Positions 17,076 through 63,868 of a DNA stretch of 64,000 nt are shown here, piece by piece (the stretch's first letter is position 1; each line of letters begins with the position of its first letter). Location of the stretch: positions 35,821,703-35,885,702 of the forward strand of contig CP154954.1 in NCBI GenBank assembly GCA_039621445.1. Reading direction: 5' to 3'. The notes under the pieces are model-generated. The model searched no databases and was not told the origin of the DNA. It saw only the letters and a program-made list of their open reading frames with translations. This stretch comes from Euglena gracilis. Lineage: Eukaryota. The position numbers were made by a program, and so were the translations under genes.

Positions 17076-17089
17076 AACACCTTCTCCGG

Positions 17090-18250: not shown

Positions 18251-18414
18251 ATTCTTTTCAGTAGATCTGTGAGCGGGGCTGAGTCAAAAGTAAAACCCTT
18301 CACGTATCTGCGGTAGAAATTCATGGCTCCCAAAATTCGCCTCAAATCCCTTTGATTCTGAACTCGAAAACTTAGAATTGGTTCAATGTTTCTTTTGTTT
18401 GCCTGCCACATTCT

Positions 18415-28215: not shown

Positions 28216-41105
<12,890 letters not shown>

Positions 41106-41500
41106 TCTGTTTTTATGAATGTGGATGTGGATGTGGATGTGCATGTATACGTATGCGTATATGAACATTATGCACATGCATACCAAAGCGGCTTTAAACT
41201 GAAATAAGCTTTGGGTACAGAAAAAATCTTCCAGAATGCAGAAAATTTTAAATCAATTTAATCAGCAGCGAAAGACCAGCAGTTGATTTTTGGCCATTTT
41301 TGGCCAGCTTTCAACAACCTTCGGTCATTGCTTTTTTTTTGCAATCTGACGTCATTTTCTGTCATGCTGCGATCATGGGGAGGGGGGCATTGGACTTTTA
41401 TCGCACCACTTTGTTTTGAAATTGTCAGCCATTTTATCAAAGAATTACGAAAAGCGTCTCTGAGAGCTACAAACGAATCGAGGCAGAGTTAAAGCAGTCC

Positions 41501-41886
41501 CAGGGTTCGATATAAGGACAGGTGGGGGGGGTGGTCTGGACCCTGCGGGCCAGGAGGGGGGGGGGGGGGGGGGGGACACCCCCCACCTAAACAGGTGCGC
41601 GGTCAGGGTGGCCGAAAATTTTTGACCCCCCAAAACGACCAAAAGTGCCATTTTGGGCACTTTTGGGCAAAAATGTGCCAAAAATGCAAAAAATTTTCGG
41701 CGCAAAGCGCCGGAGGAAAAAATTGACCCTTTTGGGGGGGTCCCGGGACCCCCCCCCCCCGAGGGTCGGTGCGGACCCCCTGGCAGGTGGGGGGGGGGGG
41801 TCCGGACCCCCCTGCGGGCCAGGGGGGGGGGGGGGGGGGGGAACCCCCCACCTAAACCATGTACGCCCTCCTTATATCGAACCCTG
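41501..41886. mobile_element. hAT-type MITE
   Basis: 18-bp TIR CAGGGTTCGATATAAGGA / TCCTTATATCGAACCCTG; perfect 8-bp TSD AGCAGTCC (41493-41500, 41887-41894). Confidence 0.93.
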
Positions 41887-42254
41887 AGCAGTCCCCTGTT
41901 CAAGAAACAGAAGAGGGGGGAACCAAAAAGGCCTCAGCGAAAGTGCTCCAATTTTTTTGAAAGCCCCTTGAACATGGTCAAACCCCCCGGAATTCCAAAG
42001 ATGCAAATTCCTGGGGTCCCCAACGCATCTCTCCAAATCGGCAGGCCTGGGACAGCGGCCAGCCATCTCCGGAACCCTGGTGGGGCTCCCCCACACCTGT
42101 GTGCAAACGCTCAGGACCCCCACCCAGCCACCTGCAGGACAACTGTGGAGTGGACTGTGGCCTGGAAGATTGTGCTTTTGGAGTTGGAGCTGGTCCAATG
42201 TGGCAATTGGCTCGATGCGAGAAGAAGCCCACCCCCAAAGGGGTTGCCGGCCAG

Positions 42255-42312
42255 TGCAGAATTATACGCCAAGTGGTTGTCCATCACCACGATGTCAGAG
42301 TTGGCCAGCGCC
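42255..42312 (-). CDS. HK exon (receiver phospho-Asp): [19 protein letters not shown]
   Basis: DIVVMD receiver motif; 3' boundary uncertain. Confidence 0.8.
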
Positions 42313-45300
42313 GCCAGCAGGGGGGTTCTAAAAAGGAGAATGCCCCCATAAAAAAAACAGATATGGATGCCCCATAGATAGATATAGATATAGATATAGA
42401 TATAGATATAGATATAGATATAGATATAGATATAGATATAGATACAGATATAGATATGGATATAGATATAGATATAGATATAGATGTAGATATATGGATA
42501 TAGATATAGATATAGATGTAGATATAAGGTAGATAAACTTATTCCTGACACTGACCCCACCCCTTTTCCAAATGCCCCAAGGTAGCCAGCCCCTGGGTTC
42601 CGACATAAACTGATCGACCTCGGCAGGCGTCTCACCAAACACCCGCACCACCGCGCCGGGTACCCACTTGGTGAAGGTATGGCGAAGTACCCGACGCGCA
42701 ACGTCAGAATCATCGACACGTGAAGAGGGCCACATCCATGAGAAACAGTTTGAAAGGCCAAAAAGTGCGTGGGGTCCGGAATCCTCTAGTCCGGGGGTGG
42801 ACAGTGCAGGGGCCAGAATGACCTAACCAGAAATGAGCGACAAAGCGGATTCAGGAACGGGTCGGGATGGCAAGATCAGCGGGTCAGCAGTGTGACACGC
42901 GAAGGCATGAGCCGTGGACCAGTTTATCGAGGTGGGGGCTCCACTGTTTTTGTGTGATCAGCAGACGAAAGAACAGGAAGGGCGGAGCAGGGACCAATGC
43001 CCCCGCAGGCCGGAGAGGCCACCCTCGGCAAAAAATTTTGACCCCTGAGGGCAAGGGAGGCGGCGGCGTTTGCAGGCAGGGCCCCGCGGGGGTGGGCAGG
43101 GGTGACAATCCACAGGGCCTTCAGTGGAAACCGTCGGCCAGCGCTTTGCCCACGGCCAGCAGTCCTTCGGTTCTGACTTCAAAGGTTGGGTGTGTGGGGT
43201 CTCCAAAATAAACCCCCCAAAAAAACAAGACGCCCCCATAAAATGGACCTCCCAAGAATAAGACCACCCCGGACGTTCCGAGCAAAAATCCATGAAATGG
43301 ACCCCCCCATGACGGTGGAAAAGGAATGGCCAGAGGCCTGAAGGAAGGCACGACAAGAAGAGGTGAAAGGTGGAAAGTGAAAAATCTTTTCCTTGTGCCC
43401 CACTTTGGCCATCCTCGGAGATATCTTTAAAATGGCGTGAGAATCAGTGCTCAAAGGGGCATCCCAGAATAATTTTCCAAATATAAACACAAAAATTCTC
43501 CAGCAAAAATCCATAAAATAGACCCGCCCCATGAATAAGACCTCCCCCATCGGGCTTTCCAGCAACCGACCCATAAATGGACCCGGGGAGGGGGTGTGAA
43601 CAGTTTCCAAGATCCAGGCATCTTTTAAAGACCTCTGGGGGGAGGGAGGGTCCCCCCATCCACCCAGTCCGGCGCGGGACCCCCCCGGGGGGGGGGTGCG
43701 GGGACCCCCCAAAAAATCGGGCCGAGGACATTTCCCAAAGAATTTTCGGCGCTTCGCGCAGAAACCCATTCCCGGGCCTCCTGCCTGGGACCCCGGGGTC
43801 CGGACCCACCAACCCCCCCCCCCTCGGGGGGTTTTCTGACTTACAGTGCAGCTAAAAATTACGGAAGACAGAAATTTTGGGAAAATACCCAAATTTTGCC
43901 ATATTCTTTTTCTCGTAATTTTCTGACTCCGTCGGTTTCCGACGCCCTCTTGGGAAGCTGCAAGCACAATGCTGGGACGGCCATGGTTTGACTCCTCAGA
44001 GTCAATGAGGACACACTGTGTCTTCGTGTTCAGCAAAACACCCGTTACGCACAAACTCGTCACAGCGAACGCATTTACGGGCTGTTTGTGTGCTACATTC
44101 ACAAGGATGTGTGGGCTCAGCAAGAAGGGATGCTTTGAGGCAGGGCGGTTCTTACCCGCCCCACCCTGGGCAATTGTCGCGTGACAAATCGGGCAGCACG
44201 GAGGGGGGGGGTGACAATTTCCCGGGGTGACAATTTGGCTGGCACAAAGGGGGGGTGACAATTGCCCGGGGGCGTCAATTGCCCGGGCGTCAATTGCCTG
44301 GGGGCGTCAATAACCCGGGGGGGCGCGGGTAAGCAAATAAAAAAAATGCAACCTCACCCAGCACAACACGTGGGACGGCAGAGTCATGGTACAAAGTGGG
44401 GCCCCCATTCCCTCCCATACCTCAAAATTTTTGTTGCCCGCATGTTATTTGGCCTCCCGGACCCTGAAAACCTGTTTTGGAGCCGAAATTGAGTGTCTGT
44501 CGGCCCCCCCGACGGCCCGTTTTTGGCCCGAAACCCATGGTGTTTGGATCAAAAACTGGTCAAAAAAGTCAAAACCCCTCGAAAATAGTTTGGGTCCGAA
44601 ACCATGTTTTTTGGCCTCCCAGACCCGGAAAACGTGTCCTTGAGCCGAAAATGAGCGGTTTTCGACCCGCCGGCGGCCCCTTTTGAATCCCATTTTGAAT
44701 CCCATGGTGGTTGGGTTTAAGAAAAAAAAAGGTCAAAACAGTCGGAAAAAAGTCGAAAAAAATCGAAAAATTTTTATCCGAAACGATGTTTTTGGGCCTC
44801 CCAGGCCCGGAAAACGCGGTTTTGAGCTGAAAGCGTTCTTCAACCGCGCGACATGCAACTGTTCGAGTGCCCGGGGAGGGGGGGGGGGGCTCCCGCCCCC
44901 CGGACCCCCCTGGCAAAAAAAAATAAACCTCATCCTTGTCTACCGATCTTTTCTGTGGTCAAATCGCGCGACGAATGAAACTGTTCGAGAGCCCAGGGGC
45001 CATAAACCTCATCAACAAAATCTCCAAACCCTTCCCTCCAAACCCCCCATACCCCCCATACCAGGTATTGAATAGTGCTGAGCTCTTAATAAGTGCTCAC
45101 CCACCCCTCATTGACACCCCCATATAAACCGGCTTAGGCGGCCTAACTCGCACTTAGCTTTGAAAGTGACTGTAAATTTGCGCCGACGCGCAAATCCCAA
45201 AAAAAGTTTGACCATCGACCACCATGGCCTGAGACTCGAGACAGTCTGAAAACAGTGTCTCCTTGCACCCCAGGGCCTGGGGACGAAAGCAACGACTGGG

Positions 45301-48300
45301 AACTGCACAGTCCACGGGCACAGCGCTCCCGAGTCCCAGTGTGCATGAACACAAAGCGCCGGGTGATGAAAATGAATGAAAATGAAAGCGCAAATGGAAA
45401 TACAATTTTTAAAATTGCAAAAGCAACATGGCTTGCGCCGAAGCGCAAATATAACTGTTTAAAACTTATCTCACAACGCAGGGAGACCACGGCCCTGGTG
45501 GAGTAACAACACCAGAGGGGATGGAGCACAAAAATGTAGAACAGGGGGACGGAAGCCTACTCTCAGTCACGTTGACTTTAAACTGGTCAACATTGCGCGT
45601 CGGCGCAAGAGCCGCGTTGCTTTGACAATCTTAAAAGTGTATTTCTACTTGCGCTTTGGCGCAATATAACTCTTAAACTTCCATTCTTCATGAGCCTACC
45701 CATTGCGCTTTGGCGCAACCGTCATCAAGTTGTATTTTCCATTTTTATCACTGCGGGTGGAGAGAGCAGTCCTGGAAGCATCTCATCACCAGAGCGGACA
45801 GAGCTCAGGTGGAGGGAAGCCTTGCCTGGGGCAGGAAGCCAACCCCCTGGTGTGTGAAAGCAACCACCAACTACTTGATAGCCAGACGTGCCTTGTCCTG
45901 TGCGTTGTAAACCCAACTTCCAGTGCCGGAGGTTCCTCCCACTTGCCTCGCACTTAAGCGTGCCTGAGGGGCCCTTCTCTTTGGCCGACTTTTAAAAGTC
46001 GGAAAATACCTGTGTGGAAAAGAACAGGTACCAGATAAACCCTGGGAACCACAGCCGAGGAAACGGTTTTAGGCGTCGAAAGGGTGTTTTAAAGAAGCTT
46101 GTCACCCCCCTTTCCTCGCCCAGGATTTGAAGCACAGAACTTTGGGGATGAGCGAATGGAATTGAGAAACCGAAAGGGCCCATCAACAACGGCGGAGAAG
46201 GGAAGACATGCTGACACGCCTTTTTTCGGTAATTTGCAACCCACCAGACAGCCACATGCAACGAGGCAGATGGAGGCATTGTTCAGCAGAAAAAAACCTT
46301 TCTGTCAACGTCCCCAAAAACCCCACTTTGTGCACCGAGTGCAAGGTCACCACAGCCTACCGCCCACCATTCGTCTTATTGTAACAACCACTTCCTCCCC
46401 AGCACCTGAATAGTTCGAAAGCACCAACCCAGCTTCTGGCACAGCAGCGCACAAACCCTCCTCACCATTCTCCCCTATCCCCCACCTTCTCACACAGCAC
46501 GAATGCATTCAAATACATCTGCCTTTTAAAAGGACATTTGCGCTTAAGCGCAAATTTTTAGCTTGCGCTTAAGCGCAAATTATAAATTTGCGCTTAAGCG
46601 CAAGCTAAAACAGAAGCCGCTGAGTTTGTGGGAGTCCCTCTGATGTGTTACGGTGTGTCGGGGGCCCCTCTCTGCATGGCCAGTGTACGGGCTTGGTGAG
46701 GAAATACATTTGCGCCGAAGCGCAAGGGACATGCCTACATAATGCACTGCTTGTTCATCCACATTACACGTCAGCCGCGTGTTTGCACTTCTCAGTTTTT
46801 TTGTATGATGGTTTGCGCTTCGGCGCAAATGTATTTCCTCACCAAGCCCGCACACTGGCTGTTCAGGGAGGGGCCCCCGACACACTGTAACACATCAGAG
46901 GGACTCCCATAAGCTCAGGGGGCTTCTGTTTTAGCTTGCGCTTAAGCGCAAATTTATAATTTGCGCTTAAGCGCAAGCTAAAAATTTGCGCTTAAGCGCA
47001 AATGTCCATAAACATTGCCTTCTGTGCCCGGCAGTGTGGGGCCTGGCGTTGCTCACCAGACGTTGGGACAGGTCCCTGGGCTTGCCCTCAATCCCCCCCA
47101 CCCCCCCCACCTGGGTGGTTCCCACTGTACCGCTCCTCGCGCTTCAAGCACACAGGGATCACAACTTTGTGACATGCCGTTTTTTCCAACTTTTCACAAC
47201 GTGTGTGTAGAGTCCACCCTCTGGATGCCTCAGCTGCCAACTCTTCACGGACATATCACAGAGGCAAAAAAAGCAACAAAAAGGGCTTCATTACACCTGG
47301 ACTGTGTGGCACCATCCGGGGAACACAGTCAAGGCTTCAAAAACGAGGGACTCACACCGGGGGTTTCGGCCCTTTTTTGGGAAAATTCACGTGTCTCGGC
47401 GGTCAAACCCAGGGTTTTGGACCTTTTTCAAAATGGTGCACAGGCCGAAAAACACCAAAATTGGGCCTGTTCCCCGGGTTCCAAAATCGGAAAATGATGC
47501 CCACGCCACCGTGGAGGGTCTCCGCGGAACCAGAGGGTCAAAAGGGTGGGTTCTACCGCCGGGTCTCAAAGAAATCGAAAATTTGCGCCAAAGCGCAAGC
47601 TAAAAATGAAAACCTTAAGTGCGAGTTAGGCCGCCTAAGACCGGCCCACTCCATGGAGCTCTGTTGACTGAAATGCAAAGGTTTTGTGCCCGAAACAGGG
47701 CGCCAGGGGGGGGGGAAACGCTCATTTTTGGCCCAAAATACACCTTTTACGAGTCTGAGGAAAAAAAAAACAGCATATAAAGCAAAAAAAAATCTGGATT
47801 TTTTTCGTGTTTTTTTGACCCGAAAATGACCGAAAGTGAGTGGGTTTACAGCCCAAAACGGGGCGCTGGCGGGTCGAAAAACACTCATTTTCTGCCCAAA
47901 AACAGTTTTTCTGGGTCCGGGAGGCCAAAAAACATCGTTTCGTTTCGATTTTTTGACTTTTTTAGACCCGGTTTTGACCCAAAGTCAATGGGTTGGCAGC
48001 AGGCAAGGACAGTCATCCCCGGTTTTTGGTCTCCGGTGGGGTCCGGTGGGATCCGGTGGGATCCAGTGGGATCCGGTGGGATCCGGTGGGATCCGGTGGG
48101 GTTCCGGTGGGTTGCCTTGGGGGGGGGGGGGATCGGGAATTCATCAATTATAAAATTGCAATAAAACAGCATTTTGGGTGAATTTGGTCATTTTCGGTGT
48201 TTTTGGCCCAAATCACCTGGTTTTGCCGGCAGATCTTATCAAAACTGTACCAATGGTCACCGAATCTGTGCACAAAATGGCCAAGAATGGCCAAAAGGGG

Positions 48301-51300
48301 GCAAAAAGTGGATAAAAAGCAGTCAGAAGTGGCCTAAAATGGACACAAATGTGCAAAAATAGCCAGAAGCAGCCAAAAATGGTCTAAAATGCCAAAATGC
48401 AGCCCACGGTGGTCAAAAGTAGCCAAAAGTGGTCCAAAATGGCCAAAAAAAAATGGCCAAAAAGGCAAAAAGCTGCTAATTTGCAGGAAACCAGACAAAA
48501 AAAAGAATGCAAGTCAACTACAGATGGGGTACTGGTGGAAATTTGTGAAAATTGCACATTCGGACATGATTCTTCTCACGCGGACCATTAATCCAGAAGA
48601 AAAATCTGTGCATGGAAAAAAAATCTCCGGTGGGATCCGGTGGGATCCGGTGGGACCCGGTGGGATCCGGTGGGATCCGGTGGGAACCCACTAGTCAAAT
48701 GGTCGAAAAAACACCGGTGGGATCCGGTGGGATCCGGTGGGATCCGGTGGGATCCGGTGGGATCCGGTGGCTGTCCTTGCCTGGTTGGCAGCCCAAAACG
48801 GGGCGCTGGTGGGTCGAAAAACGCTCATTTTCGGCCCAAAAACAGTTTTTCTGAGTCCGGGAGGCCAAAAAACATCGTTTCAGGTCAAAATTTTTTTCGA
48901 TTTTTATCGACTTTTTTGACCCAGAGTGGGTTGGCAACCCAAAACGGGGCGCTGGCGGGTCGAAAAACGATCATTTTCGGCTCAAAAACAGTCCTTGGGT
49001 CATGATGGCCATCTTGGGTCTTGATGGGCATCATGGGTCATGATGCCCATTATGGGTCATGATGCGCACCATGGGTCATGATGGCCATGATGGGCTGGGG
49101 GGTCGAAAAACGCCCATTTTCGGCTCGGAGGCCAAAAGGCATGGTTTTGGGCAAAAAAAATTCGATATTTTTCGACTTTTTTGGCCGAAAATGGCTAAGT
49201 CCACCAGTGGAAAAAGTGTACAAAATGGCCCCCATTGGTCGAAAACGGGCATATCTCGGACTGGGCGGGGAGTTGCGGGGAAATCAAAATACCGGTAGAT
49301 GGGGCGTTCCAAGGGCTTCAAATTAGGTCTCTGGACATTTCCTTTCATTTTGCTTCATTTTCGAGATATTTTGAAAATTGACATTTTTTGGCCGAAATGG
49401 CAGAGTCCAAAGGGGGGGGGGCTTATCCAGGGGGGGGGGGCGGGCCAATCCTACCCAGTTTGGACCCCTTCGTGCGTGAATGACTCGGGCCTGGCGGGGA
49501 GTTGGGGGTCAAACCCAGGTGATTCGGAAACTAGAAATCCAGTCGCTCGCGACTGGAAAAAAAAAACGGGAACGGGGCCGGGATCATGGTGATAATCCGC
49601 CGGTTCCCGAGGTGGCCCCGAGGGAGGGGGAGGGGGGTTTGGGGGGGGTTTTCCCCCAGGGGTAAGCTTCGCTCTTACCCATAAAGGGATAAGAGCTCAA
49701 CGACCCCCCATACCCCCATACCCTAGGTATGGGGGCCCCACTTCGTGCCATATGTGGGACGTCATGTGAATTCATGGCTAAAGAGAAGAAAAAGGAAAAC
49801 TAAAAATTCCTTCTTAAATTAAGCAGAGAGAAGGAAGAAATTTTTGGAAAAAAACAGATTTTGCCAAAATTAATTCTTCCAAAATAAAAATTTTGCCAAA
49901 ATTTTTTTAAAATTTTTCTCGTATTTTTTTGCTGTAATTTTTGTCTTCCGTAAGTTTTAGCCACACTGTAAAAAGAAGCCTGCCAGGGTCCCCTCCTTCC
50001 CCCTTTATGTCACGACTTTGTTGCAATTCCGGTCAATTATAAGAGTACGGTAAGCTTTTGGATGTGTACTTTGGGTATTGGCCACTCTTTGAACAAATTA
50101 GGCCCAGATTTAGAATACATTTTAAACCGCATTTTGGCCGAAATTTCGTCCAGACCACCTTCCCCCACCCTAAACCCCCCCCCCCCTAATAGAAGCACGG
50201 GTGCGCTTATAGCGGACTGCCGCCTCCGGCAGCGGGGGGGGGGGGTGTGCTTCTATTTGGACCCTACCTGCGCGATTTCTTGTTGATTTCCTTTAGAGAT
50301 CCCATCAAAATGGGGGGGTGCTTGTAGTGGACCGCAGCCTCCGGCGGCGGCGGGTGCGATTTTATTTAGACCCTGCGCTTGTAGCGGCCCCGCGCTTCTA
50401 TTAGGGGGGGGGGGGGCGGGTTTATTTATAATTTAACCGTAACTCCAACCTATCACCAATACAACCCGAACCTGAACTTAAATGTGTTCATCCAAAACGC
50501 TGTCGCATGCCACCAACATACAGCAAGGTTCCGCATCGAAACCTTGGAAGTGGCTGCATTAAACATTTTTCATTTTTTCATTGTATAATGCAGTGGTCCT
50601 GCTTGTATATAACGTGTGGGGTAGGCCCATGGCAGGAGGCTGCCATGTGTCCTGTTGTTTGTTGTTGGAGGGAGGAGGGGAGCACGTTGTGTTGTTACGC
50701 TGTAGTGCATTGGATTGTATTGGGTTAGGTTGCGGTCATGCAAGTCGGTGCGAGTGGGCGCGCACGGGAGATGTTTGGGTTCAAAAGTGCATGCACAATT
50801 CCTGAAGACCTTGGGACAGGGTATGCGCATTGGGCAGGTGAAGCTGCGGTAAGAGGGGGGATTTCAAAAAAAACGGCACATGTAAGAAAAAATCCTTTAG
50901 AATGTACAAAGTACTTAACTTAACTCACGCTGAAGGATTATGAACTGTAAAAAGCTGTAGAATAAACTGCGAAAATCCCGAGCAGAGGTTTTTTAAGACC
51001 TGGGGGAAGAGGGGGTCCGGAACGCACCCACTCAACCACAGGGCCCGTGGGGGTTCGGGGGGACCCACTTTTGGCGTTTGGGGGGAGATTTTGAGGTCCA
51101 AAATTTCTTTGGCGGTTTGCGTCGAAAATAGACAGGAAAACCCCCCTCTGGCTCTGGTTTGTCCCGACTCCCTCCCCCACAGGGAAGGGGGGCCAGACCC
51201 ACCCGCCTGCCCGCCCACCAACCCTTCGCTTCTCGGGGCACCAGGAGTAAAATATATATGGCAGCCTCCAACTATACGACCCGTGGGTCCTTTAGTTGGA

Positions 51301-51767
51301 CCGGGGGGGGGGGGTCGTGTGGTGGGACCTAGGTCCAACCTTCGAAGAAAGTCGGGGTTATGGATTGGGATAGGGTTGGGGTTATGGCTGGCGGGCCGCA
51401 GGGCTCCAATTTTTGGGAAGTTAGGGGCGCCTTTCGGAAGCATTTGGGCCGAATTTGGACCCAATTTGGACATTTTCAGGCAAACATGCGTTTTCGAAAG
51501 TCTTCCCAGATGGGGACCTAACTTCCGGCCTAACTTGGTCCCTAAAATTTGCCAAATTTCGGCGCGCCAATCCTAACCCTAACCTTATTCCTAAAACTAA
51601 GTGGGAACCCTCCCCGAATCCGCCGATGGTTGCCCAGAATCTGCGCGTTATCCCGGCGCCGTGGGTATATGTATATGTATATGTATATGTATGTATATAT
51701 ATATATATATATGTATATGTGTGTGTATATATATGTATACATATGTATATATATGCATATGTGTGTG

Positions 51768-51804
<37 letters not shown>

Positions 51805-52851
51805 ATACATGGCAGCTCCCCGCTATATGGCCCCCCAGGGGGGGCATATAGTGGGGAGTAGGGGTCAAGATAATTTTTTTGCGTTAATGATGGAATAGGG
51901 TTAGGTGCGCGAGTTAGGCGTTAGGCTTTAAGACGGGCTAACCCTAAGCCTAAGTCGCGCACCTAAACCCTATTCTAAACCCCGTTATTGAAGGTATAGG
52001 GTAAGGTGCGCACATGCTAATTTGCGCTAATTGGCTATGTTGCGCTAATCGGCTATGTTGCGCAACATAGCCGATTAGCGCAACATAGCCAATTAGCGCA
52101 AATTAGCATGTGCGCACCTAACCCTATACCTTCCATTAAGGGGGTGCCCAACCCGGTGTCAAGCTTAGTCCCCCGGGGGGGTACTTAACTTAACACTTGC
52201 CATATATATAAGTGTGTGTATACATATATACATATATATAATGTATATAATATACATACACGCATGCATATGTATATATCTGATCCCGAGACAGCCAAAA
52301 CCAAAAAAAAGTTCTTCAACAGCTTTAATTTTTTTGTCCCTGTTTGATCCAGGCATTCTTTGGGGGGTGCATTTTCGGGCCTCCAGTACCGTCTGTACCA
52401 TGGCTGGCCGCCACCCCCCCCCCAAGAGTCTGTTGGAAAACCACAACACAGCGTCCAAACCCCGCGACGGCATGGGGGTGGTGGGGCAAATCCGTCCCCA
52501 GCCGGCGGTATCCTGGGTCCACAACGCCGGGGTCCTCAGGGGCTGCATGGGGGAGGACGACAGCTTCCAGGGAGGTGCGGAATACGACCCGCTCTCCTTC
52601 CTGCTGGAGCGACACGGCCATCCCAGAGATCTGGGCTGCGGGCAGGTGGCCAGCCTCCCAGGAAATGCCTTCGTTGCCATGGTCCGGCATGTGCACGTGT
52701 GTGCGCGTGTGTGTGTGTGTGTGTGCGTTGTGTGTTGTGTGTGTGTGTGCGTGCGTGCGTGCATGTGTGCATGTGTGCGCGTGCGCGTGTGCGTGCACGT
52801 GCGCGTGTGCATGCGCGTGTGCGTGTGTACGTGCATGCGTGTGTGCGTGTG

Positions 52852-52883
<32 letters not shown>

Positions 52884-52892
52884 TGTGCGTGC

Positions 52893-52931
<39 letters not shown>

Positions 52932-55900
52932 AGAATCAAACCTCCTCATGTAAAAAGGGTCAGAATTATGGACATAAAATAAGGCACCACAAGTATTGCG
53001 TGGGTTTGAGAAAATATGTTTGACAAATGTTAAGTATTTCAACAGTTTAGACAGGACACTTTAGATACAATAAATTTGTAGGATGGCATCCTTTCTAGTA
53101 TTGTTTCCCATTCTCTCATGTAAAAGTTCTTCTCCATTTGGATCCTGGCCAGTCATATGCAACCCAGTGACAGCGTCTGAAGAAGAAAATTAATCAGAAG
53201 AGGAATCCACCGAACCCAGCCAGGGCCCCCTGACTGCCATAAACATGTGTCGCAGACCGAGGTTCTCCAGCACGGTGCTTTCAGATTCCACTGGTGGCCC
53301 GTGGAGCACCTGGTTGATGAACTCCTCCGTGCCAGCGACCCCCTCCCCAGGAAACGGTACACATAAATTAAACATGCAGTGAGTGTGTGCAGGCGAAAAT
53401 GTTTCAAAAATGTTCGCTCAAGTTTCAAAAATGTTTCAAAAAATGTTGCAAACATGTTTCAAAAATTATTGAAAATGTTTCAAAAAATCTTTCAAAAATG
53501 TTTCAAAAATACTCAAAAAATGTTTAAAAATGTTTAAAAAAAGTTAGATAAATATCATGTGATGACGCGGCGACAACGGCACCGCTGATTTCAATGATGG
53601 TGAGCAGGAAGATCGTCCACGGCACCGGTCCTCAGCCTCCCGAAAGGGAAGCGCTGCTCGGTGAGCTTTGGTTCCTCGGCCCGAACGCGGTTGGTGACCT
53701 CGAACACCACCCGGAAGCGATTGCCGGTGGCCTCGTCCAGGTTTTGGAGGGAAATTGCGAGGGTGGTGGGGGACGTGCCAGCTGCAGGCAACCCCCGTGG
53801 CTTGGCAGAACTGCGGTCGCGCCGTGCGCATACTGTCCTCCTCCCCCACGGAACCTTAAACCAGGGAGGGAGGCAACAAGGCCCTTGATGAAGTTGATTA
53901 AGAGATTCAGAGAGGGTGGGGGGCAAAGTCCTGCAGATTGACGCATCCGGAATTCCGGATGGATGCAGATCGACCCAGCCAGATGCATCGGATAATTACG
54001 CCGTGCACATTTCCTCCTTTTCTTCAATGAATCCCACGAAGTTTCGTGAAGGGTTTTGCAAAACGATCTACTGCGACGGTTGACCGCAATGCCACAATGT
54101 GCGAAACCACATATCTCCAAACCACAAAAAAAATCAATTGATTCCAGCAAGGAAAAACATCAAAGAAATGTCTTTATTTTCCTTCACTGCGGAGTTGATT
54201 GGTCAAATGGGGGCTGGATAGATCAGGTGGGTTCATGAATGGGGAGGGGGAGTTCTGGGAAGGAGGTTCGTTGCTGCAAAATGATTTCCATGTGGAGAAT
54301 TGGAACAAGCTGGTGCCATAGAGGAACGCCTTCCACCATCACTGGTGGGGATATTTAGCCAGAACAATTGTCGGCAGAAAAAAAATCTTACAGGAAAAAA
54401 ATTGGACAAATTTTCGTCCAGAACTTTTCCCACGGCATTTTCTCTCATTCCAGCCCCCCCCCCCCCGGTATCGTACCATGCAGCGGGGCCGGGGGCGGTC
54501 CTGGCCGTCGCCGTGGCACAGCGCGTTGGTCACGGCATTGTCCAGCACGATCTCGCACGCCAGGGGGTCCAGCAGCGCCACCTCCGGGGCGATGTCGCAC
54601 GCCACAGCACCAGCGCCCCCCGGGGCCGGGGCGTGGGCCGCCACCGGGAAACCCCCCCAGCCCCCCCTCCCAGGGTTCCCAGGGTTCCCCCCGGGGGGAG
54701 ATATACTTTTCGGCGCCGAAGGAGTGGAAAATTTTATAAAAGGTTCTATTTTTAGCATTTTTGCAAATTTTTGGCCGTTTTCCAGCCATTTTCGGGGAAA
54801 AGTCGGTGGGTCTCCCCAGTCCCCCCTCCCTGGGTCCCCCGGGGGGGGGGGGGACCCCCGCCGCGGGCTGTCTGGCTGTCTGTACAGCAAGGCCTGCCCA
54901 GGTTATTTGACCCCCCACCCACCAGGGTAACCAGGATACCCCCGCCAGAGGGAGGGGATGGTCGCCCCCCCCCCGCCCACCTTGAATGGGTACCACGCCC
55001 GGGCTTCTTTTGTGATCAGATGCTCTCCTGGAACAGGTGGGAAAGGAAAACCCAGACACACCACGGCCAATGGGCATCCTGAAAACTGAAAAATTTTTGA
55101 ATTTTAATGAATTTAAACTGGCAAAAAATGGTGTTTTGAGGGTTGGGGGGGTGCTTCTACCTCCATGTTTTTGCTGAAAAATTCCAACCCAGCTGAACTT
55201 GATGGTTTTTTTGAATGCGTGTGATTTTGTGGATTCCTACACAGCCCTGCCCCGCCCCCTCCGGAGACGCCTGTGGTGGGCGTCGGTTTCGCTGTCAGTT
55301 CCACGTGCTGGGGCCAAACTGCCAGCCAAAATGGGAACCGAAGCAAGCCCTGGGCGAGGGGAGGGGGCGACCCCCCCCCTTGCGCATTGCTCTTTTCCCG
55401 CTGGCGCCATTTTCCTGGTCAAATTCCTTCGGCGCCTTCGGTTCCACAGGAGCTTCCCCCGCTGCGAAATGCCACAGTCGGTGGAGGGGGGGGTCCCCAG
55501 GCATTCCCATACAAAGACGGCCCTGTGGCTATGTTGGCCTGGGACAAACCCAGCTCAGGAGCCGGGGCATACACCGGGGGACCACAAAACTTTCTCGTCA
55601 ACATCACATTCACATTAACGTTCACATTCTTCACGTTCACATTCCCATCACGAAACCCTGCGGCGGTCCCACTCGGCCCGGGTGGCTCTGGCCATTGCGG
55701 CCCTGCACCACATCTGCGCCAAAGGTCTGCAGATCAGTGGCGACGGCAGAGCCCGCCGGGGTGGCCCGCCCCAGCCCAGCCCCCTCATTCTTCTGCAGAA
55801 AAAAAAAATGAACGCCGGCCGAATGAATGCAGGGGGGGGGGACAGGAAGCGGAGGAGACGAAGGCTTTGAGGGTGTGAGGGATCGATTTTGATTGCATTT

Positions 55901-58900
55901 TCATTTGGGAGCACATGTTCTTGTGCAGGGAATCCTGGAATTTCCTTTGATTTAGAGACAGGTCGTGCCCCGAGTTATCGTCCACAGCACATAGCCGACA
56001 CTCAGCACATAGCCGACAAACGGATGGCTGGAAAAACTTTCAAGGGTTTCTTCCCGATTTGGCAGGGTTTTGGGTTGGTGGGTCAGTCCCCCCCCCCCCG
56101 GTGGTTGATCCTTGTGAAATAGTGGGTGGGTTTGGGCTTGGAAAACAGTCCCCAGGTGTCACTATGTGGCCCCATGGGAGTAAATTTTTTGGGGGTAAGC
56201 AGGTGGCTCTCCAGTCTCTTTCGGCGTCAAATTTCCGGCGAAATTCATGTGACCCCCGCCCACCACAGGATAGAGGGGCGGTCCAACTGTCCTAACCCAC
56301 CCACCCACCCGGGGGGGGGGGGGGTTACGCAGGTGTTAAACGGACCTATGGTTTCCACCTGGAAGTCAGCGAGTACAATCCTTGTAATGGATTTTTCAAC
56401 ATGACAATTCAGTCGGTGCAGTCTGTAGTGACTGATGAACACAGGATGGCAAAGGCCCATGGTGAGAGGGCACCTTGGACCGTGCACCATACCTCTCCAC
56501 AGTTTGGATGCTCCGGCGGAGCCCATGATGCATTAAGAACCTTCAATTTCATTTTGTCACAAAGTGTGCCCATGTGGAGAGGGAACACAATGTGAAAATC
56601 CAGGAAAAAAAATGGAAAAAGTGCGCATGAAGGCAAAAAAAAGACAGAGGCGTCGTAACGGAAGCTTCTCCTTCGTCCGTTCCTTTCCCTTCACTGCCCA
56701 CACATTCAGACCATCGCAGGCAGACACAAACAAAACTGTGCAGGACCCTTCAGGACCGCCAATCGCACCGGCCAGATGCCTGTGCGCCTTCCCCCGACGC
56801 ACCCTGGGGGACCAGCGTTGGGGTGTGTAGCTCCCGGACGTCATCCGCAGGATGGCCTCCCGGCGGCGGCACCAGCTCATGCCCCGCTGCAGGCACTACT
56901 GCCAGGCGGAATTTGACCAACCCCCCCCCCCCCCCGGGGGGTGGGGTCGGCCTCGCCTTAAGCTTCAGCCTGATTGGCGTGCCTGCTGCAGCTGCCCCAG
57001 GTCCGCCCCCGCACGGCGGGAGGCCCAGCCCACAGCCCCGCCTGCCCCTCCGGCGGCTCGGCCGGGGGCGACCCCACCCCCGGGCCGAGCGTTGCGCTCA
57101 GGGGTTATTTTTTCTAAGACCGGGGGGGTCACGGGGGACCCACCCACTTTTCCCCGAAAGTGGCAAAAAAAAATCGCAACCTTTTTCAAAAATTTTCGGC
57201 GCCTTCGGCGTCGAAAAGTATATCACACCCCCCTCCCTGGTTCCCGGGGGTCCAAGGCAAAAAAAAACCCTGGTTGCGCTCGCCTGCCCTTGGTCCCTCC
57301 ACGAGGCGGGGGGGGGAGGCAACTTTTGGAGCGGATTCCGCGGGGCTGGGGAGGAAGGCTGGCGTTGCCCTGTCATTCTCTTGCTTTCTTTTGGTCGCAA
57401 AAGGCAACAGAGTTCCCTCGGGGATTTTGGTAAAACTCTTCTTTCTCTCTTGAGAAAATTGCACTTCTTTATGTGAGCACCCATCAGCTTGAGCCGGCTT
57501 GCATGTCAACCCCCCCAAGAAATTGTTGCTGGACAAGTGCCAGGAACATACACTTCTTGTCGACTACCAGGGGGGAGGGAGGTCACTTTCAACATTCAAA
57601 CAACCAGTTGGTCGCTTACCAAAACCAGTCGAAACACTGCCTGTCGGTCATTTTGGCACTGAGACCAAAATGGCTCAACCTTAATTGATATTGGCCAAAA
57701 AAACCCAAAAAATCCGGCGGCTTCGGCGCAGGCTGGTCCACTTTCGGGCGGCGATCACTTTTGGCTCCGAACCCAGGGGTGGTCCGGAGCAAAAAACTAC
57801 TCAGTCGATCCAAAAAAAACCCAGTCTGTCACCCCCCGGGTATGCAATGGTGTGGTCAGGAACCCTGACAACCTCCCATGATGACAGCTGGACTGTTGCA
57901 AATTCCAGGGCCGGATCCAGTTCTCGAGTATGACAGCTTCTTGGGTGAGTTGATATGCAATGGCATCAAACTTGTGCAATGTATCTCTCGCCTTCAGCTA
58001 ATCACTTTCCTGCCTCCAGATTCCAGGTTTTGTCTTCTTAACCTTAGAACTACCTGAATAATTACTTTGCCTTACCTTAACTTGCCTCACCTTAAAATTT
58101 AGGATGGGTCCTCTTTATGGTGGGAATAGGGAAAAGCTCCCAAGGGGTGCTCATTCAAGGGAATGAGCCTGAGTTGGGTTGTCATCCTTGAAGACCCCCC
58201 CCTTGATCCCTCAAACTCCCCATGAGGCTTTGCCTCGCTGCTGTCCTGTGCGCGCACACTTCCGGGTGTACGTTTTGGCTGACGCCAGACAACTATGTGC
58301 CCCGCATTAAGCTCCCCCCCCCACTTATGCCCAACAACCAGTGATCTCTGTCCCCAGCCGGGTGGTGGTTGTTGGACACGTTTCAGCCAAAAAAAGTATC
58401 CTCCGATTGGGGGGGGGGGGTCGTTGGACATCGGGGGAGGGGGCAGTTATGGGAAATGCATGCTTTCCATACAGACTCCAAAGAACAAAACAAGGTCTCA
58501 TGGTACGATGGCACAGCGGGGCAGGAGGCTGGGGGTGGGGTGCCAGGAGGGGAGGGGGTTAGGCCCGTTGGTGTTTACAATTTCGACAAAAAGCTCGCAG
58601 CACCCGTAAATGAACTCTCTCCAGGCCTGTCTTGCTTTAAAAAGTTTTGATGCCCACACCTCATGTGACTATGTATCTGACTCATTGAGGGGGGGGGGTG
58701 CTCACAAAAAAGATCGTGCCTGGACAGTCATCCAAACGGGCCCTTCACGCTTCTGAAGGCAGGGCCTCGCCGGCTCTCAAAGAGGTAGATGCAGCGCCCA
58801 GGCGTCCGCCATAGCATTCTTCAGGATGGGCGGAGTGCGAAGCGTCGGGAGTGTTGGGGGGGCCGCCGATGGGGGGGGGGGGGCTGCCATGGAGAACTGG

Positions 58901-61900
58901 GCGGAAAAAGTCTGCTGTAGTTCCGCCCCCCCCCCCTAAACCCCCCGGCATTCCACAAACCAAGGCTTCTGACTCCCCCCCCACTCCGTCTGTGCTGCAA
59001 AAAAAAACAGGTCGCACTCACAGGGTGGCCCATCAGATGGTGATCGTAAACCATGACCTTCTCCGATAACCTTGCATACACCCGCAGGGGTCGAAAGTGA
59101 TTTTTCTCGACCCAGAACTGCACATGAAGCCTCGACTTTTTTAAAAACTGTAAGCGGTCTCCCCCAGGACGTCGTCAAATGACGTCCCACAACCAAGGGG
59201 TAGATTCAAAATGACATTCACCAAACTCAACGCACCAACGCATCAAAAGCCCCAAGCATAAACCTTTGTAAGTAAACCTTCGTCAGTTTGGGCTGACGCA
59301 AGAACTGATGTCCCAGGCACCGTCTTCATGCCCCAACCGATAGTTCTCGATATGACGCCTCTGTTTACAACATGACTTTGGTCAATGTCTGTGTTCCTAA
59401 ACACAAGATTTGGCACGTCAAAGCCTGCGTTCAGAAGCGCAGACTATGCCTGCTGAAGATGGGGATAGCTCAAAGATGGGGGGCCGGAAACCATGTGCAC
59501 CTTGTCCTCTTTGTGGTTGAGCATGGAATCTGCCTTCTCCGATGCCCGCTTCAACGCCTTCTCGCGCTGCATCTGATCGTGCAGGGACTGTGCCTCGATC
59601 ACAGAGCAGCACCAAACACACACACGCACGCACGCACACCCATATGCAGGCGTGCACACACTTATAAATCTGATGAAAGTGTGCTGCCGATGCAAATGCA
59701 TGCGATCCCCCATGTGCACACAGGAAAGAACCAGGGTGGCCCTGGTAGCGGGTCAGGGCGCTCTTCAAGACGAAGTCCGCCTGGAAGTGGCGGTGCTGCA
59801 GGACCAGCATGTAGAAGCTGGCGCAGATGGAGTGGCGGGAAGGGGTCCCCCGCGGCACGCATGTGGTGCGGACGAAAATGATGGGAAAAAATATTACCGA
59901 AAAGGCTCATGGGAAAATCAGATAATTTTCCCATGAGTTTTGTCGCCCATGATTTTTGCCCGGACTGGAGCCCTGGCCTGAACTTCCCGCCCCTGCTCCC
60001 CCCCCCCAGGTTGCTGGTTGAACTGGGGGGGGGGGGAGGTCCTCGTTTCCTGATGACAAGCACAGCACTTGGCTACCGTAGACCAAGTCAGACAAAAAAA
60101 TTCAAAACGGGGCTCAGTTCGGGCCAGCTGGGGCATCCACCAGGGTATTGCGTGAGAGGGGGGGAGGTGAGGGGAGGGGGGTGGTCCCGACCCCCCTCTC
60201 CCCGGGAGAGGGGGAGGGGTCGACCCTCAGGTGTAAATAATAAATAAATAAAAACGGCACAAAGGGCCGGAGATAATTTGAGGGGCTTCAAAAAATGCCC
60301 AAATTGTGTTTTCAGGTGATTTTTCTACCAAATTGATAAAAATAGATGATAAAATATAAGTCTGCTGGCGCGAGGAGCCAAGGAAAACAAATAATTTTTT
60401 TGGTTCCATGGGGGGTCTCCAGACCCCCCTCAGCTCTGGGGGGGGGTCCGACCCCCCCCGGGGTATTAAGTGAGTGGGGAGGAGGTGGTCTAGACCATTC
60501 GGTTACTGGCAGAAACTCCAGGGGAGGGCTTCTATTGTAAAACCCTTTGCATACATGGTGGCTATTTTTGGCTGTTTTCAGCTTTTTTTGGCTCCTTTTG
60601 GTTCTTTTTTGACCATTTCATCGCTTTTGGCCATTTTCATTGTTTCACTGTTGTCTACTGTCATTTTTGGTCCTTTCGGCAGGCTTGGAATTTTTCAGCC
60701 AATCCATAGGTAATTTTTTTGGACAAAAACTTGCACAATTTCAAACTGCTTTCAGAAATTTACACCAATTTTGGACTTTTTTTTTGGTAATTTTGCCCTT
60801 TTTTCCACCTTTTTCTCGTCACGTTTGGCACTTTCATTTCGAAAATTTATGGCGTGATAGGTGTAAGGTTGATGCTCATGAGTGAAGAGGGGAGGGTCGG
60901 AACCCCTGTCAAAACCAAGACTCACTTGGGGCCCTGGCGAACAGGATTTGTCTCCGGGACAGGTGAAAGGGATGGGTGCCCCCCCCACTTTCCTCGGATG
61001 CGGGTAGAAGACATTCAGAAAGTCGGGGTTCTGGACGCCACACCAGAACCAGGAGGCCCAGAAGGGCCTGATTCGATGGTCGTCCCCAAGCAAAAACTTG
61101 GGCCATACCCCGGGATGTGCGAAGAGACAACTTCAGCACACCACAACTGCAACGAAAAACACATACACCTCTGGGGTCAGGATTGCTCCGGAATGTGGGG
61201 GGTCCAGGACGTGTGAAACCCAATGCCTGACAGCGGACAACACAATCTCATTGAAGTGCCAGAAAACGACCCGACAAAACAAAAAAATTGCATAATCTTT
61301 GCTTTCCAAAATCATTGGGCTTTCGAAATTCTAATTTATGCATGATAAAAGGAAACAAAGGACGATTAAGCCAGAGCAAAGATGCAATAAATTCGTGAAC
61401 AAAAGCATGGAGAACGTTTGGGTGATGGACATGTGAAGGTTTTTGGACAGTCATCCAACCAACTTCCCCTAGTAAATAAGACCAAAAAAAAGCCCCCCCC
61501 CAAACAAGAGAAAGGGGGAAGTTCAAAAGACATACGCCCCCGAACATGCGAAAATGCCCCGAAAAATGGGTGGCTTTTGACATTTTCTTTATGTTTATCC
61601 ATTTTGAGGGGTTGAAATGAGCATGATTTGAGATTTTTTTTGCTCGTTGCCGAAATATGGTGCTTTTTGAACCTTCCTGAGGGAGGCGTTTATTCAGCCG
61701 AATTTTTTGGCAAAAAAATACAAAAAAGTGGACCCCAAAAAAATAAGATCCCCTTGGGGATTTTCAAAAAAAGGACCCAAAAGTTGACCCAAGGACTTAT
61801 TGGGGAAGGAGGGGTTACAATAATGGCAGCCAGAGAACTTCATTTGTACGTACTCCAAAGGATGCATGGCCAAGTGCCACGACAAGGATTCTGTCACCCC

Positions 61901-63868
61901 CCCACTTGATTTGCTTTACAGAAGTGAGCGCTGAATCAGGGTAGAGGATGGGCACACCCTAGCAGAGGCTCGCACCCAGAATCCCCAAAAGGAGACCCAA
62001 GGACAAATTTCATTTAAAAGAAACTCCTGAGCTCCTCCAAAGAATTACTGTGGGTTCCTCACCAGCAGTCCAAAAGGTTCACCCAACCTGCAATGGCAAC
62101 GGGTGGGATCTGAGGTTGGCTTGAAATCACGTTTTTCCTTCCTGCGCCATGTCTCCACCCCCGGTGGGTTGCTGCTGCAAGTCCTGATTTTGGCCCGGCC
62201 CTGAGGTGTAATGAAAACCTTTGGCGTTTGTCAATGACGGTTGTCAATGAGGGTTGTCAAACCTTTGACGGGTTGTCAATGAGGGTTCCTCCAACTTCTC
62301 GGGGAAAAAAAGAACAACTTTTTTTTAAAAAACAGCAATTAACTTTTCCTATTTATAAAAATGAGCTGGACAACCCATTTTTTTCAACACAATCTCAGCT
62401 ATTTCATTTGCAATCTTTCTGCCATTCCAATGCAATCCAGTTTCAGCCTGTTAACGCACACGTCACTCACATCGTCTGCTCTCCAAAACCCTTCGAGCCA
62501 AATTTTGCAATGACGCAAAATTCCATATCGGGGATGAGAGAACGTTCCCCCGCACACCCAGTGCGGATGGCGACAACGCAACGATGGGCGCCGGGCAATC
62601 GCTGGGCGGGATATTAGTGTCGACCTGCGGTGACAGGTTGGCGATCAGGGCGACGGTGACCGGGATGGAGAGGTATGTGAGGACGAACCACACGTTGCGG
62701 GCAGGGCGGGAGGGAGGGGAGGAAGGGGCGCAGCGGGAGACGCAAGATGGACCAGCAAAAAAGACAAGACAAAAAAAAAAAAAAACAAAACAGAAAAAAA
62801 CAGAACAAAAAAAAAAACACACAAAAACACACAAAAAAACACACAAACGAAAACACAAAAAAAAACACACAACCACGCAAAAACACAATAAAAACACAAT
62901 AAAAACACAATAAAAACAAAAAACAAAAAAATGCAAGTTGCGCCCTCCCCGCTGCTCTGAGCCTACTAAGTAGATTCCAATTCATGACGAGTCGACTAAG
63001 TCTCCCAAAGGCGCATTGAACTGATCACTGCTGAGAGAGACAGCAAGCGCACAGCACGCACACTGGACGAAAATACACCTGAGATGATGAAAGAGAGGCT
63101 TTTCGTCAACCAGGGATCAAAAGCAAGCTGCAACAGGAGTTGGAGTGCCTGATCCCCACAATGTGTGCAGGAGGCCAATAAAAAATCGTTGCAACACACC
63201 CCAGTGAGTTGCTCGAAGCCTTACAAGTGTCCAGCCCTGCACGAAAAGGCACGAAACTGACGATAAAACCAAAATCAAAGCTTCTGAGAATGCCCACGCG
63301 GCTGGACAACAGCACTTGGACTGCATTTTCCTGCGGGGGACGCTTCCACGCCACACACACCGTGTGTTGCACGCCGCATACGCTGCATAAACACGCACCG
63401 CGTGTTTCACGCCATGCACGCCGCGCCGCACGCCGCATGTGACGTGCGACACCTGCCAGGCCATCTTAAGAACATTTTGCAGGTACTCGGCACTGGGCAC
63501 TGGGCACTGGGGGGATGGACCACTGGGATGGATGGATGGATGGATGGATGGAAAAAACGGACCAGCTAGACCCCCCCTGGGGGAGGGGTCCGGGGTCCCC
63601 CGACAAAAACAAATTTCCTCCGGCGCTTTGCGCCAGTCATTGGAAAAAAGCTTTCCATTAGCTAGCCTGCTAGCAGACCCCCCCCCCGGCGGGGTCCATT
63701 GGAATTCCCGCTAGCTAAATTTGGACCCCCCCCAGGAGGGGTGCTGCGAACCCTTGAGCAAAGGCCTGACACCCTGGGCGACGCCGATGAACTGCAGCAG
63801 GTCAAAGAGCAGCAGCAGCTGAACGGCAGCGATAATGAGGTGCTTGCGGCTGGCCTCCCGCGTGATGT
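42255..63868 (-). CDS. Multi-exon membrane-bound hybrid histidine kinase (TM helices, HisKA-like NHILKN, HATPase_c, receiver); 5' end beyond window, 3' end not located
   Basis: 16 exons join under the nnnCAG...CTGnnnnn rule, apart from two 1-nt slips inside exons and one unresolved gap (60084-62630). Product: ...[19 protein letters not shown]...[12 protein letters not shown]...[21 protein letters not shown]...FEVTN...[11 protein letters not shown]...[15 protein letters not shown]...DIVVMDNHL. Confidence 0.88.
42375..42525. repeat. (GATATA)n microsatellite inside intron 42313-42598
   Basis: Direct inspection. Confidence 0.95.
42599..42719 (-). CDS. HK exon (receiver): [39 protein letters not shown]
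   Basis: Receiver acidic pocket VDDS. Confidence 0.87.
43030..43071 (-). CDS. HK exon (start of receiver): [13 protein letters not shown]
   Basis: CTGcctgc| and |gccGAG; gives KIFCVDDS after splicing. Confidence 0.8.
44155..44329. mobile_element. Short copy of the 40427-40917 MITE family
   Basis: Same termini, TA TSD and GGGCAATTGTCGCGTGACAAATCGGG start. Confidence 0.85.
45133..47639. mobile_element. 2.5-kb TIR element with 5-bp TSD and many TTGCGCnnnnGCGCAA palindromes
   Basis: 24-bp TIR CTTAGGCGGCCTAACTCGCACTTA / TAAGTGCGAGTTAGGCCGCCTAAG; flanking direct repeat ACCGG. Confidence 0.85.
46532..47007. mobile_element. Foldback MITE, ~190-bp inverted arms
   Basis: GGACATTTGCGCTTAAGCGCAAA... 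arms are near-perfect reverse complements around a ~90-bp spacer. Confidence 0.9.
48032..48770. repeat. Three short arrays of 10-bp (TCCGGTGGGA)n
   Basis: Arrays at ~48032-48110, 48626-48684 and 48714-48770. Confidence 0.9.
50171..50424. mobile_element. Small MITE
   Basis: TAAAC(C)nTAATAGAAGCACGGG ... CCGCGCTTCTATTA(G)nCGGGTTTA inverted termini. Confidence 0.7.
51990..52133. repeat. 144-bp spacerless palindrome
   Basis: Centre TTGC|GCAA at 52061/52062; one mismatch in the arms. Confidence 0.92.
52519..52637 (-). CDS. HK exon (end of HATPase): [39 protein letters not shown]
   Basis: CTGcccgc| and |accCAG; phases match both neighbours. Confidence 0.85.
52690..52930. repeat. (TG)n/(CGTG)n microsatellite in intron
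   Basis: Direct inspection. Confidence 0.95.
53236..53327 (-). CDS. HK exon (F/G2-box region): [30 protein letters not shown]
   Basis: CTGgcacg| and |agtCAG. Confidence 0.85.
53660..53779 (-). CDS. HK exon: [40 protein letters not shown]
   Basis: CTGcagct| and |gagCAG; 40 codons. Confidence 0.85.
54507..54605 (-). CDS. HK exon with HATPase N-box: [33 protein letters not shown]
   Basis: N-box pattern LDNA..NA..HG; 33 codons. Confidence 0.9.
55694..55741 (-). CDS. HK exon: [16 protein letters not shown]
   Basis: CTGccgtc| and |ggcCAG; 16 codons. Confidence 0.82.
56810..56897 (-). CDS. HK exon: [25 protein letters not shown] (1-nt slip in C run near end)
   Basis: CTGgcagt| and |cccCAG. Confidence 0.82.
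56976..57014 (-). CDS. HK exon: [12 protein letters not shown]
   Basis: Boundaries from a 14/16-bp intron stem and |aatCAG. Confidence 0.78.
57099..57272. mobile_element. hAT-type MITE
   Basis: CAGGGGTTATTTTT ... AAAAAAAACCCTG with perfect 8-bp TSD GTTGCGCT (57091-57098, 57273-57280). Confidence 0.9.
58772..58827 (-). CDS. HK exon: [18 protein letters not shown] (contains +1 slip)
   Basis: Completes the NHILKN H-box; GAG/CTC-paired introns on both sides. Confidence 0.8.
59513..59596 (-). CDS. HK exon: [28 protein letters not shown] (phospho-His candidate)
   Basis: Coiled coil leading into the H-box; exactly 28 codons. Confidence 0.88.
59748..59830 (-). CDS. HK exon: [28 protein letters not shown]
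   Basis: Followed by the paired-end intron 59597-59747. Confidence 0.82.
60056..60083 (-). CDS. HK micro-exon: VYGSQVLCL
   Basis: CTGacttg| and |catCAG; joins in frame to SICASFY. The 5' boundary is tentative. Confidence 0.55.
62631..62696 (-). CDS. HK exon (TM): [22 protein letters not shown]
   Basis: Flanked by CTGcccgc| and |ccgCAG; high GC3. Confidence 0.78.
63780..63868 (-). CDS. HK exon (TM region): [29 protein letters not shown]
   Basis: Flanked by CTGgccat| and |gccCAG; in frame with the next exon. Confidence 0.75.

Follow-up and report, generated by a model that had tools for sequence, protein, structure and literature searches.

The nonconventional introns of a gene spread over about 22 kb of the Euglena gracilis genome, where homology to a transcript-derived protein allows their ends to be placed, are bounded by cuts 3 nt before a CAG (or GAG) and 5 nt after a CTG (or CTC), and the sum of these two spacers equals the length of the 8-bp target-site duplications (TSDs) flanking transposons with CAGG...CCTG ends in and beside the same gene. 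We put at about even odds (a probability near 0.5) the proposal that these introns descend from CAG-ended transposons of the 8-bp-TSD kind. The stretch in question (assembly GCA_039621445.1, contig CP154954.1, 35,821,703-35,885,702 of the forward strand) comprises 64,000 nt and is referred to as the window; the search for intron copies was confined to it. How nonconventional introns of euglenids originate, and by what mechanism they are removed, have been open questions since the 1990s. An origin from sequences resembling MITEs (miniature inverted-repeat transposable elements) was proposed by Milanowski in 2014 (PMC3935182), in line with an earlier sequence-only reading of this DNA, which had noted that a transposon origin had been put forward in general terms.

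Three intact, non-autonomous DNA transposons with such ends, together with a diverged relative of one of them, were located in the window:

41493-41894, unstranded: MITE M1 with its TSDs; element at 41501-41886, 386 bp, TSD AGCAGTCC on both sides.
57091-57280, unstranded: MITE M2 with its TSDs; element at 57099-57272, 174 bp, TSD GTTGCGCT on both sides.
47992-48791, unstranded: MITE-like element M3 with its TSDs; element at 48000-48783, 784 bp, TSD GTTGGCAG.
About 54671-54838, minus strand: diverged relative of M2, its ends aligning with the CAGGG...AACCCTG of M2, nested in the intron at 55693-54606.

M1 and M2 carry exactly the CAGGG...CCCTG ends and perfect 8-bp TSDs that the sequence-only reading had ascribed to them; M3 had been missed. 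Specifically, the termini of M1 (CAGGGTTCGATATAAGGA...TCCTTATATCGAACCCTG) form an uninterrupted terminal stem of 18 bp, the inverted repeat of M2 is imperfect (CAGGGGTTATTTTTTC / CAGGGTTTTTTTTTGC), and M3, which starts with CAGGC and ends as CAGGCAAGGACAG...CTGTCCTTGCCTG, has the perfect 13-bp inverted repeat CAGGCAAGGACAG. M1 lies in the 3′ flank of the gene, downstream of the last recognisable exon, M2 within the intron upstream of the exon at approximately 57027-56976, and M3 in a tandem repeat unit within a 9.4-kb intron. For M3 the empty site is also at hand, as neighbouring paralogous repeat units continue uninterrupted through this position with a single copy of the target; its duplication can alternatively be read as 9 or 10 bp. 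The M2 relative has not kept its TSD, and its flanks match at 3-4 of 8 positions.

The 8-bp length also stands out when the whole window is scanned. Requiring 11 or more inverted-repeat matches out of 14 yields 86 CAG...CTG pairs; three of these are flanked by exact repeats of 8 bp, and none by exact repeats of 4-7 or 9-12 bp. A looser scan (at least 9 of 12 matches, 254 pairs) again gave three pairs with 8/8 flanks, versus 0.2 at shifted control positions, none with 7/8 flanks, and three with 6/8 flanks versus 2.0 expected. The flank counts thus describe a window of young elements plus background, in which a graded series of older copies is not apparent. When the M1 end was used to scan metagenomes, the 23 matches were all single and attributable to chance, and none represented another copy. 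With respect to internal sequence, M1, M2 and the fragments at 54693-54826, 43678-43715 and 63579-63634 have in common the core AAATTTTCGGCGC and long runs of G or C. This 9-base core occurs 17 times when one mismatch is allowed (4.75 expected), and no additional TSD-bearing element was found in the window around 14 copies of the motif.

The gene itself was delineated with P0007, a 645-residue E. gracilis transcriptome protein (EG_transcript_6207), which was placed on the minus strand by tblastn and local alignment:

42258-63869, minus strand: one gene of about 22 kb in 16 exon pieces, covering P0007 residues 152-575 at 46-91% identity per piece.

For each pair of neighbouring exons, all in-frame donor/acceptor combinations were then ranked by alignment to P0007. 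The introns with 3/5 geometry at junctions supported in this way are the following, given in the order of transcription, with the number of identities between the 8 nt preceding and the 8 nt following the core:

62697-63779, minus strand: nonconventional intron GCC|CAGGG...CCCTG|CCCGC; 8-mers GCGTCGCC/CCCGCAAC, 3/8.
61173-62607, minus strand: nonconventional intron N3-CAG...CTG-N5; 4/8.
59597-59747, minus strand: nonconventional intron N3-CAG...CTG-N5 of 151 nt; 2/8.
58828-59512, minus strand: intron of 3/5 geometry with a GAG...CTC core; 3/8.
56898-56975, minus strand: nonconventional intron AAT|CAG...CTG|GCAGT of 78 nt; 3/8.
54606-55693, minus strand: nonconventional intron N3-CAG...CTG-N5; 3/8, ends 13/16 as an inverted repeat.
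53780-54506, minus strand: nonconventional intron N3-CAG...CTG-N5; 4/8.
53328-53659, minus strand: nonconventional intron, best case of the sequence-only reading; 8-mers TCACCGAG/GCACGGAG, 6/8, ends 9/12 as an inverted repeat.
52638-53235, minus strand: nonconventional intron AGT|CAGGGG...CTG|CCCGC; 4/8.
42720-43029, minus strand: intron of 3/5 geometry with a GAG...CTC core; 3/8.
42313-42598, minus strand: nonconventional intron ACC|CAGGGG...CTG|CTGGC; 3/8.

Overall, 11 of the 15 introns read N3 + CAG/GAG...CTG/CTC + N5, nine with CAG-CTG and two with GAG-CTC. The 3/5 junction is among the top-scoring positions in 8 of the 15 and lies 1, 2 or 6 alignment points below the top in three more, the last of these being the 151-nt intron at 59597-59747, which falls in a variable linker. 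At the other extreme, intron 62697-63779 has the top protein score, and the joined residues QFIGV|NVWFVL align with P0007 without a gap. Since the core trinucleotides are rare and few positions tie for the top score, this agreement with the geometry is far beyond chance and independent of the motif. The same cannot be said of the earlier hand definition, because 5,224 CAG-CTG pairs with modest pairing are found within 10.9 kb and fitting the motif by eye is correspondingly easy. The statement that all 14 introns then defined have the 3/5 geometry therefore holds for the 11 at homology-supported junctions, while "all" is not verifiable given four ambiguous introns, namely those between exon pieces Eb2-Ec, Ee1b-Ee2, Ef-Eg and Ek-El.

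The Ef-Eg intron illustrates this ambiguity:

55742-56820, minus strand: Ef-Eg intron with ambiguous ends; a CGG...CTG candidate at 56799-55742 fits the frame.

This candidate keeps the acceptor previously proposed for the intron. The intron 55742-56809 cannot stand as originally drawn, however, because its donor reads the exon at 56897-56821 as ...HELVPPPGG..., whereas the frame favoured by the homologues is the other one, with 80% identity to P0007. A conventional-looking in-frame pair was also seen by eye at 55785-56802 on the minus strand, consisting of AGG|GTGCGT and a T10CTGCAG acceptor ahead of an in-frame AAG codon, and the in-frame GT-AG pairing among the ranked junctions ends 8 nt beyond that acceptor. 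Either conventional-looking pair might apply in place of a nonconventional solution.

The 11 secure introns have several features of their ends in common. A pyrimidine|purine step is favoured at both junctions, with the expected base at the exon end in 10/11, at the intron start in 10/11, at the intron end in 10/11 and at the start of the next exon, which opens with a purine, in 11/11. As in the MITE ends, G follows CAG/GAG in 8/11 5′ ends, and the matching C precedes CTG/CTC in 7/11 3′ ends. The helix adjoining the core has 3-5 of 6 positions paired in nine introns and 2 of 6 in the remaining two; on visual inspection, one of these two looks like a 5-bp helix with a bulge.

If the spacers derive from a duplicated target, some identity between the 8-mers on the two sides of the core is predicted. 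The 11 secure introns have 38 identities in 88 positions (43%), as compared with 28% from base composition and 33% when each 5′ 8-mer is paired with the 3′ 8-mers of other introns; the latter value exceeds composition because both junctions prefer pyrimidine|purine. Permuting the pairings gave P = 0.039. As a control for register, the 3′ window was slid from -12 to +12, and the predicted register (-5 to +3) ranked first of the 25 offsets, with 38 matches against a mean of 23.8 and a maximum of 33 at the others; the comparison with other offsets, which the sequence-only reading had called for genome-wide, came out in its favour for this gene. Inclusion of picks for the four ambiguous introns (15 introns) gave 48/120 and P = 0.021, with the register still first of 25. 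The excess is spread across 8-mer positions 3-8 rather than hugging the junction. These values agree with the hand count of 49/112 (44%), which had been called suggestive, and the pairs quoted at the time (6/8 at 53328-53659 and 5/8 at 55742-56809) are as stated. For this gene, the residual identity at the expected offset is thus a real but small signal, and it is suggestive rather than decisive.

In terms of mechanism, transposons with CAGG...CCTG ends and 8-bp TSDs would insert into exons, splicing would cut 3 nt ahead of the terminal helix and 5 nt past it and so remove the element plus exactly one 8-bp copy, and nonconventional introns would be the descendants of such insertions. The arithmetic is exact, as had been claimed: a CAG...CTG element with an 8-bp TSD, cut in this way, loses itself and one TSD copy. 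An insertion into an exon would consequently be silent in the messenger RNA. It may even be, as a guess, that 3 and 5 are the sole pair summing to 8 with a 2-nt stagger across a helix. In maize, a Ds insertion that is processed like an intron was reportedly described by Giroux in 1994. All three elements with their TSDs, read on the sense strand of the gene, conform in full to the published code 5′-N3CDG...CH′GN5-6|R (PMC12501133), and TSD positions 5|6 are pyrimidine|purine in 3/3. When folded as RNA, CAG pairs with CTG in four of six element-by-orientation combinations, which comprise M1 in both orientations (stems of 17-18 bp) and M2 and M3 in the gene-sense orientation; in the opposite orientation M2 and M3 slip by one register.

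A number of observations weigh against such a descent. End-to-end homology to M1, M2 or M3 is seen in none of the 15 introns within the window, so that the near-identical MITE-family members anticipated among the introns did not materialise, and no MITE lies within a credible exon of the window; the copies are instead nested in introns, with M2, its relative and M3 in three and an M1-like fragment in a fourth. Per-intron 8-mer values range from 2 to 6, and no intron reaches 7/8 or 8/8. The nine CAG-CTG introns taken alone give 32/72 (P = 0.09), and in the de novo models that preceded use of the homologue, identity was 26-39% and P ranged between 0.026 and 0.41. Roughly one third of the excess relative to composition is accounted for by the shared pyrimidine|purine preference, which brings chance identity to 33%. 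The published code allows 6 nt after CTG, in which case removal is not scarless (PMC12501133), and the junctions used here were placed by homology to a paralogue or orthologue rather than by complementary DNA.

Several of these points are also what would be expected if the agreement were a coincidence, that is, if the 3/5 cuts reflect an enzyme measuring from the helix, the MITEs are ordinary elements with CAG ends and 8-bp TSDs, and the introns arose in some other way. The absence of any intron that is a MITE copy, the modest identity excess (P 0.02-0.09 depending on the set), the 3′ spacer of 5 or 6 nt, and the short intron stems (2-5 of 6 positions paired versus 13-18 bp in M1 and M3) are all in keeping with this explanation. 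We nonetheless consider it unlikely, as it requires CAG(G) ends, a terminal helix and a TSD length of 3 + 5 to coincide, with offset 0 being the best of 25 registers, and it must also accommodate an intron of recent gain whose junctions carry 8-nt repeats (PMC4770533). The latter, intron 4 of gapC in E. agilis strain ACOI 323, is strain-specific and flanked by eight-nucleotide direct repeats, which have the appearance that would be expected of a fresh 8-bp TSD.

The authors of that case interpret the repeats differently. Milanowski et al. (2016) proposed double-strand-break repair (PMC4770533), and their interpretation counts against a transposon source; junction repeats are likewise abundant at the conventional introns of E. 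agilis (PMC12501133), in keeping with repair. In such a scheme, junction repeats would stem from break repair or from microhomology during intron gain and not from a transposase. This leaves the CAG...CTG inverted ends and the fixed 8-nt length unexplained, and the excess identity in our set covers 8-mer positions 3-8 and is not confined to the junction; we regard repair as an improbable source of the repeats. Taken together, the evidence makes transposon descent of the introns a plausible and testable proposal that sharpens a published hypothesis and is only partly new. The intron-generating system envisaged in the sequence-only reading is accordingly supported, short of proof, by exact geometry and a weak identity excess here and by one published case elsewhere, and no intron of the window is itself a MITE copy.

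The superfamily to which the elements belong is a separate matter. Assignment to hAT is a lead that rests on TSD length and CAGGG ends and is unproven; M1 and M2 share CAGGG with the 5′ end of Ac/Ds, whose ends are (C/T)AGGGATGAAA with 8-bp TSDs (PMC3260210). Two findings lean against it. Neither a hAT transposase domain nor any other transposase family was detected by Pfam among 90 window open reading frames (ORFs) of at least 110 residues each, and the target consensus nTnnnnAn of the Hermes/Ac type (PMC10368747) is matched poorly, in full by one of the three TSDs, by half in one and not at all in one. The elements might instead belong to Merlin, P or an undescribed superfamily with 8-bp TSDs, in which case the link to introns could still hold. 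Two Merlin families with 8-bp TSDs have been reported in E. gracilis, and the TSD length seen here fits the 8-9 bp of Merlin, but Merlin inverted repeats end in GG (PMC8101967) and those described here in CAGG. On balance, a superfamily other than hAT seems rather less probable than not.

With regard to the state of the gene, the copy in the window carries a +1 frameshift at 58800-58794 (minus strand), where, in comparison with the homologues from E. gracilis and E. longa and with a third one, a GGG run separating ILKNAMADA from CIYLF has one surplus base. No part of the window matched the last approximately 70 residues of P0007 at better than shuffle level. In view of the frameshift and the lack of a recognisable C-terminal region, this copy may be a pseudogene or decaying copy, or the assembly may contain a homopolymer error. 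An exhaustive profile search with one exon gave seven weak matches, among them P0007 and P0005; the latter comes from E. longa, and its C-terminal end matches a receiver domain below threshold. Homologous-protein searches with two exon queries gave no match, and Pfam on 10 single ORFs gave one sub-threshold chance match only.

Several gene structures were tried and set aside. Sequence-only gene models, whose intron number varied from 5 to 26 with the value of a single penalty, were too unstable to use and were replaced by the homology-guided junctions. A stop at 53192 is not the end of the gene, as the frame runs on past it via intron 52638-53235. An H-box in the frame HELVPPPGG of exon 56897-56821 was discarded with that frame, the homologues supporting the other, and an acceptor placed at 54666, where the M2 relative ends, was wrong according to the P0007-ranked junctions.

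The remainder of the window is rich in repeats. A 213-bp satellite of about 69 copies at 92% identity fills window positions 1-15365 and recurs at 24033-24506, and ORFs of a long-terminal-repeat retroelement of the chromodomain type lie on the minus strand at 15817-21147. Pfam matches in the scanned ORFs comprise reverse transcriptase, RNase H, aspartyl protease, an integrase zinc-binding domain and a chromo domain, with a weak Dam methyltransferase match (E 2e-4) in one ORF of the set. Directly downstream of the last recognisable exon region of the gene, a hexamer microsatellite, (ATGTAT)n, extends for 12.2 kb (28216-40423, about 2,040 copies). At 45133-47639, the perfect 18-bp inverted repeat CTTAGGCGGCCTAACTCG and the 5-bp direct repeat ACCGG bound a 2.5-kb stretch that is possibly a different kind of transposon and has a long hairpin within it (46549-46990).

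Were the introns to descend from transposons as proposed, a vague MITE-like origin would give way to numerical predictions that can be checked with existing data: an 8-nt repeat in register -5 to +3, CAGG...CCTG ends, a target rule at positions 5|6, and intron families that also occur as intergenic elements with 8-bp duplications. In a broader form, which we advance only tentatively and with more doubt than conviction, nonconventional splicing itself would be an RNA-level excision matched to one kind of DNA transposon, operating 3 and 5 nt from a terminal helix so that the element and one 8-bp duplication disappear without a scar. A host splicing system would then be fitted to the chemistry of transposon insertion; any insertion whose target is pyrimidine|purine at 5|6 would be silent, which would explain the ongoing massive gain of introns in Euglena.

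These features may finally be set against known systems. In E. agilis, nonconventional introns make up about 72% of all introns, and junction direct repeats are present at 84.4% of introns (PMC12501133). In the same paper, the need for CAG/CTG and for spacers of 3 and 5 nt was tested by knock-in, and fully synthetic 50-bp sequences built on the code are spliced. The introns described here share with the published ones the 3/5 spacers and CAG/CTG-type core in 11 of 15 and the purine exon start in 11/11; they differ in that two have GAG/CTC, outside CDG/CH′G, and in that their splicing is deduced from homology. An earlier survey noted G/C at +7/-9 in 31 of 55 introns and asked whether CAG(G)/(C)CTG might be a "fingerprint" left by the sequence from which the introns came (PMC4770533).

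Compared with hAT elements of the Ac/Ds type, the likeness lies in the 8-bp TSD of 3/3 elements (possibly 8-10 bp for M3) and the CAGGG start of M1 and M2, whereas M3 starts with CAGGC, the target consensus is poorly matched and no transposase partner is known here. Introners, found in Micromonas, dinoflagellates and other lineages, are comparable in that a transposon and its TSD supply precise removal (PMC11282704). They form near-identical families and are spliceosomal, whereas none of the 15 introns here belongs to a family and their removal is, according to the literature, non-spliceosomal.

The closest precedent is the MITE-origin hypothesis, in which the inverted intron ends are taken as terminal inverted repeats and the junction repeats as TSD-like (PMC3935182, PMC11282704), the review in particular describing CAG/CTG as an inverted repeat. 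It was put forward when, as of 2014, no transposable elements were known in euglenids (PMC3935182). A literature search, with most subscription journals and supplements outside its reach, found no paper equating TSD length with 3 + 5, no link of hAT to Euglena introns, no stated TSD length and no such MITEs in a euglenid genome. In their available text, the papers advancing the hypothesis specify neither a superfamily nor a TSD length and point to no actual MITEs in a euglenid genome, whereas the window described here holds three intact elements whose TSD length equals 3 + 5.

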